Notes under the pieces: model-generated | Told to the model about the DNA's origin: nothing | Seen by the model: the letters and a program-made list of their open reading frames with translations, nothing else | The model's database searches: none | Shown here: one piece after another, positions 1 to 64,000 of the stretch | Position numbering within the stretch: position 1 is the first letter of the stretch | Layout of the letters: each line of letters opens with the position of its first letter | Assembly: GCA_964016885.1 (NCBI GenBank) | Contig: OZ024748.1 | Span: 31,558,001-31,622,000, forward strand | Direction: 5' to 3' | Source of the DNA: Eledone cirrhosa | Taxonomy: Eukaryota | Length of the DNA stretch: 64,000 bases | Program-made: the position numbers and the translations under genes

Positions 1-277
1 TATGTACACACACACAGAAACAAAATGGCGTAGGACAGAACAAAGGAGAGGCACAGAAACAAAGAAAGGAATCCCCAGTCACTGAAGAGGTCACAGAGTG
101 TGTGACGAAAGAACTATGACTATATATAAACAACTATCTGGTTGTGGAACCAACCAACCAACCAGAAATTTATAAATTTATAAATTTATTATAAATTTAT
201 TATAATAAATTGAAGTGAAAGCAACTGGTGCGTGTGTTTCTTATTGGCAACATGACCCTCCCAAAGTATAACAATAT
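1..277 (+). mobile_element. PLE family A terminal repeat (pLTR) fragment
   Basis: Near-identical to the 3' repeat after the RT/GIY-YIG ORF (about 19025-19298); ends at AAAGTATAACAATAT fused to (AT)n. Confidence 0.9.
77..121 (+). ncRNA. Minimal type-I hammerhead ribozyme, family A (other copies 1188-1232, 15049-15092, 19094-19137, 26356-26400, 54483-54527 on +; 51054-51098 on -)
   Basis: AGUCA-CUGAAGA-G-GUCAC(loop)GUGAC-GAAA-GAAC-UA^UGACU: stem I AGUCA/UGACU, core boxes, stem II, very short stem III; HHRs in PLE pLTRs are established. Confidence 0.8.
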
Positions 278-748
278 ATATATATATGTATATATATATA
301 TATATATATATATATACATATGTATATATATATATATATATATATATATATATATATATATATATATATATATATATATATATATATATATATATATATA
401 TATATATATGTATATATATATATATATGTATATATATATATATATATATATATGTATGTATATATATATATATGTATATATATATATATATATATATGTA
501 TGTATATATATATATATATATATATATATATATATGTATATATATATATATATATGTATATATATATATGTATATATATATGTATATATATATAAGTATA
601 TATATATATATATATGTATATATATATGTATATATATATGTATATATATATATATGTATATATATATATATATATATATGTATATATATATATGTATATA
701 TATGTATATATATATATATATATATATATATATATATGTATATATATA
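278..748. repeat. Interrupted (TA)n microsatellite (representative; many more tracts occur, the largest between 35490 and 55855)
   Basis: Direct reading; source of the spurious poly-IY ORFs. Confidence 0.99.
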
Positions 749-1117
749 GGCTGCTCAGCCGTTAATTTTCATAAGGAAAGTATATACTTTCGAACGTTCA
801 ACTATCTGGCAGATGGGTAAACGGTGCTGATGATAGCTAACAAGCTTGAAACTAGTACATCGTTCCTGTGTCAGTGTTGAACAAAAAGGTGACGTGGTTG
901 CCTTAACACCGTATGGCATAAATTCAGGCTGTTCGCTTCGTTGACAAACAAACGAACAAAGCGGCCGGCGTTATAATAAACGTAGGCTAAACTGATGCGT
1001 GCATATATGTATGTATACCTGTATGCATATGTGTATATATATATATATATATATATATGTGTGTATATATATATATATGTGCATGCTACTGTACGTCTGT
1101 ATACATATATGTATGTA
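747..1117 (+). mobile_element. Retrozyme-like family H, partial monomer
   Basis: Matches the 5' part of the tandem unit at 1809-3750; contains the HHR at 821-863. Confidence 0.85.
821..863 (+). ncRNA. Type-I hammerhead ribozyme, family H (copies 1883-1925, 2388-2430, 2886-2928, 3424-3466, 11537-11579 on +; 10997-11039 on -)
   Basis: ACGGUG-CUGAUGA-U-AGCU-AACA-AGCU-U-GAAAC-UA-GUA^CAUCGU; palindromic ACUAGU at stem III. Confidence 0.88.
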
Positions 1118-1388
1118 CACACACACAGAAACAAAATGGCGTAGGACAGAACAAAGGAGAGGCACAGAAACAAAGAAAGGAATCCCCAGTCACTGAAGAG
1201 GTCACAGAGTGTTAGACGAAAGAACTATGACTATGTATAAACAACTATCTGGTTGTGGAACCAACCAACCAACCAGAAATTTATAAATTTATAAATTTAT
1301 TATAAATTTATTATAATAAATTGAAGTGAACGCAACTGGTGCGTGTGTTTCTTATTGGCAACATGACCCTCCCAAAGTATAACAATAT
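1113..1388 (+). mobile_element. PLE family A pLTR fragment fused to family H
   Basis: Repeat of 1-277 with the same TATGTACACACA junction; its HHR stem II is mutated (GTGAC to TAGAC). Confidence 0.9.
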
Positions 1389-1808
1389 ATATATATATGT
1401 ATATATATATATATATATATATATATATACATATGTATATATATATATATATATATATATATATATATATGTATATATATATATATATATGTATATATAT
1501 ATATATATATATATATGTATGTATATATATTTATATGTATATATATATATATATATATATGTATATATATATATATATATATATATATGTATATATATAT
1601 ATATATATATATGTATATATATATATGTATATATATATGTATATATATATAAGTATATATATATATATAGTATATATATATGTATATATATATGTATATA
1701 TATATATATGTATATATATATATATATATATGTATATATATATATGTATATATATGTATATATATATATATATATATATATATATATATATATATATATG
1801 TATATATA

Positions 1809-60020: not shown

Positions 60021-60041
60021 ATATATATGTATATATATATA

Positions 60042-61692
60042 TAGAATTCCCTTTTTCGGACTATATTACTGTGAGAGCCCTGGTTTTCTGTTGAGCTCTG
60101 CTGATGAATGATATTCCAACCGTGACCATCTCCACTGAAAGTTTTCATGAAATAGTCTTTTAAGACTATACAGAGCATTTGATGTTATTCCAAATTGAAG
60201 GATAAGTGTTTCAAACTTTGTTTTATCATGAGTTAAAGGTCTATAGATTTTTCCATGGATTTTACTAAATTCTGTGGATGAATTTGTATCCTGATTCTCT
60301 TTTGAGATGAGTTTGAGTTATTTTTCCTAAATCTTTCGTTAACTACTTTTCCCATCTTGACGTTATAGTCGCATATATGTTATAGAATGCCGTTAGCTTC
60401 TTGCTAAAACAATCTCTATACGTCTCATTTATATTTATACTCGGATTCTTTTCCTAGAGTGCTTAAACTATCTGTGACTAATCCCGGTTTTTTTCATAAA
60501 AACTGTGATAATTATTGCTATTTTGCTGAACTCCTTGTAGAGTTTTTTTCAGAATGTATTTGACTGCTATTTCTTGTAAATAAACATTCACTTCCATCCT
60601 GACGTCACTAGCCCCGTTTTTTCCTCATGTGCTTTTTCATAAATACACATGAAGGCGAACTAGCCAGTTTTAGAATTCCCTTTTTCGGACTATATTACTG
60701 TGAGAGCCCTGGTTTTCTGTTGAGCTCTGCTGATGAATGATATTCCAACCGTGACCATCTCCACTGAAAGTTTTCATGAAATAGTCTTTTAAGACTATAC
60801 AGAGCATTTGATGTTATTCCAAATTGAAGGATAAGTGTTTCAAACTTTGTTTTATCATGAGTTAAAGGTCTATAGATTTTTCCATGGATTTTACTAAATT
60901 CTGTGGATGAATTTGTATCCTGATTCTCTTTTGAGATGAGTTTGAGTTATTTTTCCTAAATCTTTCGTTAACTACTTTTCCCATCTTGACGTTATAGTCG
61001 CATATATGTTATAGAATGCCGTTAGCTTCTTGCTAAAACAATCTCTATACGTCTCATTTATATTTATACTCGGATTCTTTTCCTAGAGTGCTTAAACTAT
61101 CTGTGACTAATCCCGGTTTTTTTCATAAAAACTGTGATAATTATTGCTATTTTGCTGAACTCCTTGTAGAGTTTTTTTCAGAATGTATTTGACTGCTATT
61201 TCTTGTAAATAAACATTCACTTCCATCCTGACGTCACTAGCCCCGTTTTTTCCTCATGTGCTTTTTCATAAATACACATGAAGGCGAACTAGCCAGTTTT
61301 AGAATTCCCTTTTTCGGACTATATTACTGTGAGAGCCCTGGTTTTCTGTTGAGCTCTGCTGATGAATGATATTCCAACCGTGACCATCTCCTCTGAAAGT
61401 TTTCATGAAATAGTCTTTTAAGACTATACAGAGCATTTGATGTTATTCCAAATTGAAGGATAAGTGTTTCAAACTTTGTTTTATCATGAGTTAAAGGTCT
61501 ATAGATTTTTCCATGGATTTTACTAAATTCTGTGGATGAATTTGTATCCTGATTCTCTTTTGAGATGAGTTTGAGTTATTTTTCCTAAATCTTTCGTTAA
61601 CTACTTTTCCCATCTTGACGTTATAGTCGCATATATGTTATAGAATGACGTTAGCTTCTTGCTAAAACAATCTCTATACGTCTCATTTATAT
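60042..61692 (+). repeat. Head-to-tail array of 629-bp non-coding HHR units (family G, about 2.6 units)
   Basis: AGAATTCCCTTTTTCGG at 60043, 60672, 61301; units almost identical; TA-rich flanks. Confidence 0.95.
60095..60176 (+). ncRNA. Canonical type-I hammerhead, family G (copies 60724-60805, 61353-61434)
   Basis: GCUCUG-CUGAUGA-AUGA...UCAU-GAAA-UAGUCUU-UU-AAGACUA-UA^CAGAGC; full stem III. Confidence 0.9.
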
Positions 61693-62142
61693 ATATATAT
61701 ATATATATATATATATATATACATATATATATATATATATATATATATATATATATATATATATATATATATATATATATATATATATATATATATATAT
61801 ATATATATATATATATATATATATATATGTATATATATATATGTATATATATATATATATATATATATGTATATATATATATGTATATATATATATATAT
61901 ATATATGTATATATACATATATGTATATATATATATATATATATATGTATATATATATATATATATATATATATATATGTATATATATATATGTATATAT
62001 ATATATATATATATATATATATATGTATATATATATATATATATATGTATATATATATATATATATATATATATATGTATATATATATATATATATATAT
62101 ATATATATATATATATATATATATATATATATATATATATAT

Positions 62143-64000
62143 ATAAAATATTAAAAAAATAATGAATAAAACAATGAAACAGTTCCTTATATTAAACAAA
62201 AAAAGTTCATTATTTAACGATCGTTTCTAGGATATATATGTGTTAGAATTGGCATGCATATTCAACAGGTCTATGTACAAAATTATACAAAATTATACAA
62301 ACTATCAAAATTAAATATACATACCAAATACATATATATGCCGTCTTCAGAAATAATGAAATATATTTATTGATAATAACAACAATTCAAAATTTCAGGT
62401 CTGTTTGGGAACAGAATTCAAATTGACCAATGAAAATACAAAAAGTTTATGCAGTTAGGTGTGTGTATATACATGTAATTAACTTCGTTCACAGATATGC
62501 ATAAAGATATGTGTTCACATGCATACGCATGCCAAAAAGATGTATGTAAATACAAAAATTCAAGGCTAATGTCTCTGTAAGTTTATAATCTACAGATAAA
62601 ATATATCTACAGATATAATACATAATTATAAAATAAATATATACAACCTTCTATATATATATATATATATATATATATACATATATATATACATATATAT
62701 ATATACATATATATATACATATATATATATACATATATATATATACATATATATACACACACACACACATATATATATATATATATATATATATACATAT
62801 ATATATATATATACACATATATATATATATACATATATATATATACACATATATATATACATGTATATATACACATATATATATATACATGTATATATAC
62901 ATATATTATATATATATATATATATATATATATATATATATATATATATATATATATATATATATACATATATATATACATATATACATATATATATATA
63001 TATATATATATATATATATATATATATATACATATATATATATACATATATATATACATATATATTTATATATATATACATATATATATACATATATATA
63101 TATATATATATATATATATATATATATATATATACATATATATATATATACATATATTATATATATATACATATATATATACATATATATATATACATAT
63201 ATATACACACACACATATATATATATATATATATATATACATATATATATATATACACATATATATATATATACATATATATATATACACATATATATAT
63301 ATATATATATATATATATATACATATATATATACATATATATATACATATATTATATATATATACATATATATATACATATATATATATATATATATATA
63401 TATATATATATATATAACAATATATTTAGAAACACACAGATACATGCGGACACACACATATACATGAATGCATCCGCACCCAACCGTGAGTTAAGGGTGC
63501 CAACTTCATCGATGTTGCTCAATGAATGATTGGGACAGACCAATCCGGTTGAACTAGACTGAACCAGTATCAGAGTTAAAATACATTATGAAGAGAGAAG
63601 AAACATTTAGATATAATTAGTAATAAAATGTATCATACCTAAACTGCTCCTAGATTCCTCGACTACGTAGTTTCGTGGCATAAACAAAAACAATACATCA
63701 TAAAGATATAGAGTCCTTGCGAGGTCTGCCGACTTATCAAGAGGATACCTCATTTTAATAGTCTCAAGAACGCGTCTACACGACGTGAGAAAGAATCCCA
63801 AAAGGCGGAGGGGGAGATAGTCACGCGATATAACGGTCGAGAAACAGAGCTAAGGCTCTTATAACCCCGAAGAAAATACCACGGAGACGGAGGGGGTATT
63901 TATATCGCAGCCGTAGAAGAGGTGGTGAAGGGGGCGAGAAGTATGAGTAATGGAAGCTTTCCAGCAGTCCCCACACTTCAAAGATTGCTCGACCAGAGGG
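62143..64000 (-). mobile_element. Second copy of the composite D-(TA)n-E unit (runs off the window)
   Basis: Colinear with 26659-28520, including the interruption pattern of the internal (TA)n. Confidence 0.9.

Follow-up and report, generated by a model that had tools for sequence, protein, structure and literature searches.

What are the hammerhead ribozymes (HHRs) that crowd this (TA)n-rich locus of Eledone cirrhosa, and which protein inserts them? The window, by which we mean the whole stretch of 64 000 nucleotides analysed, had been described in an earlier note as a community of about 33 type-I HHRs in 11 families, eight of them non-coding, mobilized in trans by (TA)n-targeting PLE proteins. 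The literature leaves open how PLEs choose an internal start, why they form tails and fold-backs and which element mobilizes the retrozymes of animals. The window is a nest of (TA)n-targeting PLEs and of the ORF-less tandem retrozymes D, G, J and L. Our preferred explanation, to which we give a probability of roughly 0.7, joins this nest to two fixed insertion ends, a and b, and to a small RNA hairpin on which a PLE protein would dock. The elements are listed below, and we are highly confident of their classification into PLE clades and retrozymes; the family letters are our own and may differ from those of the note.

1–273, +: 3' end of family A (putatively Neptune-like PLE); HHR core 82, cut after 116; duplicated at 1112–1384 (core 1193)
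749–3748, +: retrozyme D tandem, unit about 493 bp with an internal TA tract, ending at site a; HHR cores 827, 1889, 2394, 2892 and 3430
4171–5391, -: family B2 (putatively Neptune-like PLE), GIY-YIG remnant and pLTR with inverted copy; HHR core 4474
10850–11176, -: D variant, fold-back; HHR core 11033
11304–11788, +: D variant; HHR core 11543 (CCGACGA, U4C)
12327–12746, fold-back (a+b): family E, 3' end of a Hydra-type PLE; HHR (-) core 12491, cut after 12401, U3–A8
14615–19287, +: near-complete PLE A; inverted tail 14615–14829, HHRs at 15054 (5' pLTR) and 19099 (3' pLTR), broken RT/GIY-YIG ORF 15338–18910
20995–23007, -: Hydra-type PLE C, truncated and frameshifted; HHR not found
23389–24939, +: Hydra-type PLE B fragment (RT), fused to a PLE A fragment
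24925–26559, +: PLE A 3' fragment; HHR core 26361
26662–27105, -: family F 3' end (Hydra-type PLE); HHR core 26813, stem II of 116 nt; duplicated at 62147–62649 (core 62350)
27927–28520, -: retrozyme G, 593-bp unit; U3–A8 HHR core 28260, hairpin a about 28016–28075, hairpin b 28507–28523; duplicated at 63425–64000 (core 63740)
32440–35488, -: Hydra-type PLE B, broken RT/GIY-YIG and 3' region; HHR not found
37880–41017: LINE with an intact 1045-aa EN/RT frame
43765–44168, -: family H pLTR (Hydra-type PLE); HHR core 43950, hairpin a 43825–43844; local duplicates at 46524–46929 (core 46709) and 50032–50450 (core 50228)
48387–48930, fold-back: family F, b at left and a at right; HHR cores 48716 (-) and 48736 (+), hairpin a about 48433–48513 (-)
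49333–49723, fold-back: family I, pLTR of a Hydra-type PLE; HHR cores 49516 (-) and 49631 (+), hairpin a 49387–49411 (-)
50893–54748, fold-back (a+b): PLE A; HHR cores 51093 (-) and 54488 (+)
55855–58100, +: family K 3' UTR and pLTR (Hydra-type PLE); HHR core 58010; inverted tail 55855–55973 containing hairpin a 55912–55933 (-)
58104–59291, -: retrozyme J tandem, 524-bp unit, ending at site a; HHR cores 58824 and 58300; hairpin a about 58596–58626 and 59120–59150, hairpin b 58502–58518 and 59026–59042
60042–61690, +: retrozyme L tandem, 629-bp unit, ending at site b; HHR cores 60101, 60730 and 61359; hairpin a 60294–60312, 60923–60941 and 61552–61570, hairpin b 60439–60460 and 61068–61089

Hammerhead motifs

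The number of motifs given before is borne out, with 33 now tabulated by core and cleavage position (A 7, B2 1, D 7, E 1, F 4, G 2, H 3, I 2, J 2, K 1, L 3). It is inflated by tandem units, fold-backs and local duplication, and we estimate that the motifs derive from about 17 insertions. All six palindromic stems III reported earlier were located after GAA, and 25 of the 30 non-LINE islands of at least 150 nt carry an HHR, in keeping with the statement that most do. The core CUGANGA/GAAA/UH or its U3–A8 covariant (E and G) is present in 32 of the 33; the remaining motif, at 11543 in D, is U4C. Stem I of the B2 motif is weak.

The note had allowed that shuffled sequence might be equally rich in such motifs. 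It is not: a strict descriptor gave 23 matches in 47 344 unmasked bases, far above 100 local dinucleotide shuffles (mean 0.35, maximum 3). Twenty-two are tabulated motifs and one, at 31062 in an AT-rich satellite, is probably false. A bulge-tolerant descriptor regained the HHRs of E, F, G and J and gave eight extra matches in satellite; those of B2 and of D at 11543 were recognized by eye only. An Rfam search of the window gave no hit to Hammerhead_1 at the gathering score, and the same model does match a tandem at the metagenome locus L328. Folding of single motifs was no better than that of shuffles (z -0.4 to -2.0; E +1.0). A self-duplex through stem III is predicted for ten of 12 variants and a monomer hairpin for L only.

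The suggestion that this density and diversity had not been described did not survive. Comparable diversity and a link between PLEs and retrozymes are already published (one coral has more than 6000 HHRs in 16 families), and the density follows from (TA)n content and local duplication: the HHR density of the window is about six times that of random genome stretches, (TA)n is likewise about sixfold, and the window sits within a local duplication. The cluster itself is ordinary for such genomes.

PLE termini and retrozymes

Nine families have no ORF in the window, where the claim of eight non-coding families stands. Genome-wide it fails for five of the nine: E, F, H, I and K are 3' ends or pLTRs of autonomous PLEs outside the window, which we assign to the Hydra clade by protein motifs, HHR and target. 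The note had foreseen that all its non-coding families might be only such 3' ends; for D, G, J and L this is unlikely. Partner frames elsewhere in the genome measure 827 aa (F), 747 aa (H) and 821 aa (I), and partners of K and E are also present, the copies seen being frameshifted. In F, H and I a single ORF carries a telomerase-like RT, and the predicted structure of the H protein best matches telomerase RT (TERT). The N-terminal RWK position reads RWR in F, H and K and RWT in I. All five families insert in (TA)n and have the HHR in the pLTR; the copies of B and C that lie in the window yielded no HHR. The C-terminal GIY-YIG, the DKT motif, the CxCX5C linker, the absence of CCHH, the pLTR HHR, the (TA)n target and the inverted 5' copy and tail are shared with Hydra-clade PLEs (Craig et al., 2021; PMC8557442), of which one family is recorded from Octopus bimaculoides. 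Those elements are generally below 3 kb and PLE tails are 30–40 bp, whereas the present ones span 3.8–6.7 kb (pLTR spacing 3.8 kb in H, 3.9 kb in I, 5.4 kb in K and 6.7 kb in F) because of their long 3' UTRs, with tails of 88–167 nt and a stem II of up to 116 nt.

Motifs only suggest the label Neptune-like for A and B2: A has both the CX2-5CxxC linker and the endonuclease CCHH, and the B2 remnant has CCHH only. Minimal hammerheads of PLEs are reportedly treated by Lunse et al. in 2017, beside Cervera and de la Pena in 2014. With the latter set (Cervera & de la Pena, 2014; PMC4209133) the window shares an unpaired base 5' of stem II (A and B2), the U3–A8 core (E and G), a dimer-type stem III and opposite-strand pairs 100–700 bp apart. 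Nothing essential separates the two sets, although the long stems II and 8–10-nt palindromes of the Hydra-type motifs stand out.

Families D, G, J and L are non-LTR retrozymes, a class already described. They form head-to-tail tandems with fixed ends on many contigs, with a type-I HHR in each unit of 493–629 bp (published units span 51–972 bp; Li et al., bioRxiv 10.64898/2026.07.22.740005), and their longest ATG frames are 45–102 aa. ORF-less tandems, an HHR per unit, a palindromic stem III, a U–U at the base of stem II and a proposed dependence on PLEs are common to animal non-LTR retrozymes (Cervera & de la Pena, 2020; PMC7229834; Li et al.). The published link to PLEs comes from co-occurrence and pLTR similarity, whereas for the present retrozymes it comes from insertion ends and an RNA structure shared without primary-sequence similarity, and it names a clade. 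The non-autonomous Chlamys PLEs, for example MRC1 (Craig et al., 2021), are likewise head-to-tail passengers with a microsatellite bias, but have 3' sequence in common with autonomous families and, for the most part, no HHR. Since D, G, J and L are ORF-less and dispersed on (TA)n with PLE-type ends, the mobilization in trans by a PLE protein that was proposed earlier is likely for them; it is not supported for E, F, H, I and K, which are PLE termini.

Could G, J and L (and D) be pLTRs of unseen autonomous PLEs, their tandems being by-products? The same proved true of E, F, H, I and K, Xenopus retrozymes resemble pLTRs, and our finding of no ORF-bearing copy ending in D, G, J or L applies to the best 40 matches per family, segmental duplicates included, of 889–2350 candidates. 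Past site b, however, each unit of G, J and L re-enters its own HHR and no ORF; these families show only simple-repeat similarity to nine autonomous PLEs and 77 metagenome loci; and the HHR region of L recurs in 40 copies at a spacing of 629–634 bp only, never 2–8 kb, in contrast to the pairs at 3.8–5.9 kb of H and K. We judge this origin unlikely and treat the four families as retrozymes proper.

Fixed insertion ends

Every family tested (ten of ten) has two fixed 3' ends on (TA)n, a and b, which join the target through a few common T/A bases. Along the RNA the HHR cut site comes first, then site a and then site b. A single arm contains up to 13 full units. Among the loci compared, the best 40 matches per query with segmental duplicates included, fold-back insertions pair a with b in 83 of 85 cases, the other two being script artefacts.

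A precedent is the Poseidon PLE of the green anole, PAc, in which two internal RT starts define the tail and both strands of an AT-rich target are cut and extended in vitro (Frangieh et al., 2024; PMC11167929). Its start lies inside an AC-rich stem-loop in the ORF, the same on both strands and without homology to the target, whereas here the putative starts immediately precede a hairpin that is conserved and duplicated, show T/A microhomology and pair strictly as a+b.

The same TA tracts also harbour three LINE-type RTs, and these (TA)n-associated LINEs might be thought to move the tandems in the manner of SINEs. Starts that lie internally, at a and b, together with a+b fold-backs and a Hydra hairpin, are characteristic of PLEs, though, and self-comparison of the window gave no 3' tail shared with the LINEs; such a driver is very improbable.

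A bulged hairpin at both ends

The hairpin consists of NCUC, a short stem, a loop, a stem, a U–U/C/A bulge and GAGN. It begins about 5–9 nt 3' of sites a and b in Hydra PLEs and in G, J and L, within RNA sequence that is left out of the copy. A descriptor derived from the same window-family sites that it scored finds it at 14 of the 15 a/b sites of E, F, G, H, I, J, K and L, and the fifteenth (b of H) fits with a U–G pair; it is at none of the five sites of A, B2 and D. The outer pair is mismatched in both hairpins of G, and that at a of E is weak.

The motif extends beyond the window. It lies upstream of the ORF in 31 of 54 metagenome Hydra loci, twice in 12 (shuffles 0.35; opposite strand 1), and follows the end of the terminal repeat in 17 of 22 loci of unrelated metagenomes, these being 17 families less than 80% alike, compared with 11% of background positions; it is absent at five of the 22. 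At L328 a retrozyme, a 281-bp HHR tandem, stops just before it. The first inner pair is formed in 104 of 106 sites picked by sequence alone (70 C–G, 31 U–A; permutation maximum 88). A covariance model of the metagenome hairpins matched window copies weakly (a of H, E 0.039; a of K and of I, about 1; b of L, 5.7) and missed those of G and J, and six of its 13 matches lay elsewhere. In modelled circular monomers the hairpin is predicted to pair strongly at L b (0.9) and J a (0.6–0.8), moderately at J b (0.5) and poorly at G a (at most 0.25), G b (0.03) and L a (0).

The published consensi Hydra-2_Amil, Hydra-1_Ajap (twice) and Hydra-2_Ajap contain the motif, although the words hairpin and stem-loop are absent from the main text of Craig et al. 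(2021; PMC8557442). It was not found in Rfam or in the literature searched, and a small RNA hairpin common to PLEs and retrozymes is apparently undescribed.

Proposed mechanism

In our proposal the Hydra RT/GIY-YIG protein recognizes the hairpin as its docking signal. It would nick the palindromic (TA)n target, the nicked end would pair with the UAU that immediately precedes the hairpin, and reverse transcription would begin there; that the hairpin sets the start is reasonably probable. If each of the two hairpins of an RNA carried a protein, both target strands would be primed and an a+b fold-back would result, a single protein giving a simple insertion; we lean slightly towards a single RNA serving both strands. 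G, J and L retain both hairpins and on that ground would borrow the Hydra protein. Their mobilization is likely assignable to the Hydra clade through the shared hairpin, and movement by its protein is the part of the scheme we consider most probable. D has two fixed ends without the hairpin, and its driver would therefore be another PLE clade.

The hairpin might act otherwise: as DNA, if the endonuclease recognizes the tail, or by self-priming of the antisense strand, or by a part in translating the ORF just downstream. The D. virilis Penelope tail is required for endonuclease recognition in the secondary account of Frangieh et al. (2024; PMC11167929), self-priming has been proposed before for fold-backs, and in autonomous elements the hairpins lie 45–165 nt upstream of the ORF. 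Yet it is kept twice in the ORF-less G, J and L, its distance outside each insertion end is fixed in more than 25 families, and self-priming does not account for outer ends that are a and b in every case. These roles seem to us more doubtful still than a pLTR origin of the tandems, and we retain docking.

Copying would proceed back over the HHR site, and the simplest template for this would be a circle that arises when HHRs cleave as dimers and ligate. Circles have been demonstrated for retrozymes of coral, mussel and axolotl; more than 30 families retain HHR cores and palindromic stems III, with differing sequences; and D arrays hold 11–13 near-identical units inside single fold-back insertions, with a locus-specific microsatellite signature common to both arms. 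All this tells against an uncleaved linear multimer as template, with the HHR dispensable and arrays growing in DNA by unequal exchange. The Poseidon PLE nevertheless uses mainly uncleaved RNA as template, its HHR mutants inserting normally in vitro and no reads ending at the cut site (PMC11167929); Xenopus retrozyme dimers cleave in only one of nine cases; and one L array (L087, 12 units) is a mosaic of variants, not expected from one circle, while another (L088) has recurring unit variants. The linear multimer is a real possibility that we would not back, and for the circular template the chances look even.

The arrangement has parallels, by analogy only. Telomerase RNA sets a short primer-pairing stretch, used for alignment, beside a protein-bound template-flanking element. 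In LINE-1 twin priming two primings yield an inversion, the second site being variable and upstream, whereas here it is fixed and downstream. Speculatively, a portable bulged hairpin of about 25–35 nt, conserved across animal phyla, might be the telomerase-like docking element of Hydra-clade PLEs; two copies on one (circular) RNA would load two proteins that prime both (TA)n strands, any two-hairpin RNA would be inserted, and retrozymes would be RNA circles that kept or gained only the hairpin signal and the hammerhead.

The hairpin may account both for the choice of start by PLEs and for the borrowing of their enzyme by short passengers. Clade-wide, covarying and present at both start sites, it offers simple mutational tests of these questions. 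It also allows retrozyme families to be assigned to a driver with which they share no sequence similarity, serves as a search motif for annotating the ends of Hydra PLEs and, if portable, would be a small signal acting in cis to direct the insertion of RNA-templated DNA into (TA)n. Ten hairpins were found in 160 kb of random sequence, which by rough extrapolation suggests on the order of 100 000 in the 3.0-Gb genome.

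The hairpin as a cis-element

We consider a bulged RNA hairpin, placed just 3′ of the two ends at which Hydra-type elements and three retrozymes join (TA)n, to be a new cis-element of an established system; hammerhead ribozymes (HHRs), Penelope-like elements (PLEs) and their terminal repeats (pLTRs), tails, retrozymes and the link between PLEs and retrozymes are already known. Neither the hairpin nor the strict pairing of ends described below was found in the literature searched (subscription journals and preprint supplements lay outside its scope, and the supplements of Li et al. 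may bear on the matter), nor in the main text of the clade-defining paper (Craig, 2021; PMC8557442). The hairpin was not found in Rfam.

HHR census

The window (29% G+C, contig C8 of a 3.0 Gb assembly with four contigs of 379–443 Mb) is split into islands by (TA)n tracts. We counted 33 type-I HHR motifs in 11 families, in agreement with the earlier note. Their density exceeds that of shuffled sequence, with 23 matches to a strict descriptor against a mean of 0.35 (maximum 3) in 100 shuffles. A bulge-tolerant descriptor recovered families E, F, G and J at the cost of eight matches in a satellite; HHR matches in this 283–288 bp satellite (28.4–32.5 kb) were rejected as low-complexity chance. The CUGAUGA of family E was likewise discarded as a core, as it overlaps GAAA; the true core is UUGAAAA, 72 nt upstream. 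Rfam detected none of the window HHRs at the gathering score, the 150 matches listed by E-value were solely TA-driven microRNA matches, and single motifs folded no better than shuffles. The HHR variants seen here are described ones: an unpaired base preceding stem II, the U3–A8 core (Cervera, 2014; PMC4209133) and, at the stem II base, U–U (Cervera, 2020; PMC7229834).

A relaxed scan of 985 kb of fetched loci gave 728 matches in 49 clusters, about eight of which we judge to be false. Stem III is palindromic across these clusters, in many different sequences, a pattern that fits cleavage of HHRs as dimers.

Autonomous elements and retrozymes

Eight families had been taken as non-coding. This description suits D, G, J and L, in which no long frame was found, but E, F, H and I, together with K, are PLE ends. 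Family F represents the 3′ terminus of an element whose 827-residue RT/GIY-YIG frame is intact (loci L081 and L083). H and I are pLTRs that border frames of 747 and 821 residues, respectively (L179, L181), and frames of this type next to K and E carry frameshifts. All have DKT and CxCX5C and lack CCHH, features characteristic of the Hydra clade (Craig, 2021; PMC8557442). The best match to the predicted structure of the H protein (pLDDT 84) was telomerase RT. Pfam gave a weak RVT_1 match in A and no domain in the Hydra or GIY-YIG pieces; by motif, A and B2 appear to be Neptune-like PLEs. Flanks were read further at ten loci for E, two for K and five for element M. The 3′ UTR of PLE F (L081 187–4143, L083) is about 3.9 kb long and rich in (TA)/(TG) repeats.

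D, G, J and L form head-to-tail tandems with units of 493, 593, 524 and 629 bp, respectively. A first look gave 889, 1381, 1614 and 2350 genome candidates in the same order, of which the best 40 each were scored. Beyond simple repeats they share no similarity with nine autonomous PLEs. Judged by sequence, these four are non-LTR retrozymes, for which dependence on PLEs has been proposed (Cervera, 2020; PMC7229834; Li et al., bioRxiv 10.64898/2026.07.22.740005). Contigs from four sequencing runs of undefined kind confirmed family L and the junction with TA at its site b, and nothing more. Hydra-type pLTR pieces (L042 505–1180; L049 about 2400) are joined without a break to G or J sequence; template switches between families may be the cause. 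At G000:C4:109905–109915 kb (L218–L228) a single D fold-back of about 9 kb carries 13 full units in one arm and four in the other.

Two fixed 3′ ends

Insertions of the tested families have variable 5′ ends and finish at one of two sites, a and b, both joined to (TA)n through common T/A bases; microhomology leaves their positions uncertain by a few bases.

Distances (nt) of sites a and b from the HHR cut
A: 158, 218
D: 272, 335
E: 59, 188
F: 73, 209
G: 78, 243
H: 51, 139
I: 46, 135
J: 125, 233
K: 51, 143
L: 113, 264

Of 85 insertions with two inverted arms (fold-backs), a set biased to close copies and including some segmental duplicates, 83 combine an a end with a b end; the remaining two are a read-through and an erroneous match between unrelated pieces. 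Antisense self-priming (Arkhipova, 2013) was set aside as the origin of fold-backs, as it leaves the fixed a+b outer ends unexplained. The pair of ends seen here is the PLE 'tail', which in vitro experiments have tied to two internal RT start sites (Frangieh, 2024; PMC11167929). Since the retrozymes carry it, there is direct sequence evidence of their insertion by a PLE. The earlier proposal that non-coding HHR RNAs are mobilized in trans by PLEs thus gains from the PLE-type ends on D, G, J and L, but does not extend to E, F, H, I and K, which are PLE ends themselves.

Position and covariation of the hairpin

In families E to L the hairpin lies immediately 3′ of sites a and b, beyond the copied part, and takes the form N(C/U)UC, a stem of 2–5 bp, a loop, a U–U/C/A bulge and GA(G/A)N. 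A descriptor, devised post hoc, matched 14 of 15 sites in these families and none of five in A, B2 and D (D site b, at 335, being left out), against a background of 1.8–7.1%. No signal common to D and A/B2 was found by eye or BLAST. Six further flank families have short and long copies; the strict hairpin lies 6–7 nt past the short end in three (clusters 13, 17 and 20) and a degenerate one past that of clusters 10, 15 and 24. Fold prediction supported the hairpins at L site b and J site a, and not those at L site a and G site b. Two HHR architectures track two drivers: a long stem II with palindromes of 8–10 nt accompanies the hairpin, and a short stem II with palindromes of 4–6 nt (D, A, B2 and six other clusters) occurs without it.

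An outside test used 77 Hydra-type metagenome loci, representing 58 families at 80% identity, in which the hairpin is mostly GCUC…UU-GAGC-ACU. Of the 54 loci with sufficient sequence, 31 carry it 5′ of the ORF, including 12 with two copies, compared with 0.35 in shuffles and one on the other strand. It falls −2 to +8 nt from the terminal-repeat end in 17 of 22 loci, compared with 11% of background positions. Paired hairpins are spaced 43–85 nt apart, the first mostly 27–61 nt past the HHR cut. Among 124 sites picked by sequence alone, 106 have GCUC upstream. The inner pairs 1–3 covary, being paired in 104/106, 72/99 and 46/59 cases against permutation maxima of 88, 56 and 37, with kinship ignored. 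A covariance model from 37 metagenome hairpins scored window copies weakly, missed those of G and J, and placed six of 13 matches elsewhere. Published coral and sea-cucumber Hydra consensi contain the hairpin (Craig, 2021; PMC8557442). At L328 2627–2988 (−), in an unrelated metagenome, a 281 bp HHR tandem beside a Hydra PLE has its (TA)n end just before the hairpin.

In random genome stretches, a TA tract follows 28–60 nt after nine of ten hairpins, and the remaining one runs into an ORF. One short family inserted in (TA)n and bearing a canonical hairpin is very common, with five copies in 100 kb of random sequence.

Copies of the short hairpin family
L184: 1799–1833
L185: 58–92, 1951–1985
L186: 4990–5024
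L188: 7190–7224
L034: 1203–1237

A model for insertion

We suggest that the hairpin docks the Hydra protein and that a nicked (TA)n end would pair with the UAU preceding it. Two Hydra proteins on one RNA could then prime both target strands. A model in which HHR dimers carry two RNAs to the target was dropped, as two RNAs would also yield a+a and b+b. Copying would cross the HHR site, the template being either circular or an uncleaved multimer. We give a circular RNA template about even odds, because HHR cleavage is dispensable in the green anole Poseidon element PAc, whose start sites are alike on both strands (Frangieh, 2024; PMC11167929), and because the arrays differ: in family L, L087 is a mosaic and L088 has array-specific variants, and D units hardly differ within a locus or between its two arms.

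Density, local duplication and other elements

Sixteen random 10 kb genome stretches held nine strict HHR matches, making the window about sixfold richer; long TA tracts are fivefold enriched (19.7% versus 3.9%). The 30 kb upstream mostly repeat window pieces from 9.6–31 kb, at about 99% similarity in the unique parts; on the downstream side, 10 kb repeat 27.9–35.5 kb. Window 9.6–35.5 kb and L085, L086, L181 and L182 constitute a local tandem segmental duplication, its unique parts about 99% alike, to which the assembly may contribute. Copies of H, F, G, A and D in the window have common truncation points, and we estimate that the 33 motifs derive from about 17 insertions. The earlier note knew of no parallel for the density and diversity. 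The density is not exceptional given this enrichment and duplication, and comparable diversity is on record: more than 6000 HHRs in 16 families in a coral, with 126 247 HHRs in axolotl (Cervera, 2020; PMC7229834).

Other elements in the window
36810–41102 (+): LINE with an open 399-residue ORF1 and a 1045-residue EN/RT ORF2, ending on (TA)n
5528–10440 (−): related broken LINE
13005–14292: RTE-like fragment
19641–20712: GC-rich (53%) island between TA/CA repeats, without an HHR
28400–32500: AT-rich satellite, period 283–288 bp, with an internal inverted arrangement, repeated in the flanking regions
59635–60017: element M, in which neither HHR nor hairpin was seen; a fold-back inserted in (TA)n, its two fixed ends separated by 31 nt, with 149 genome candidates
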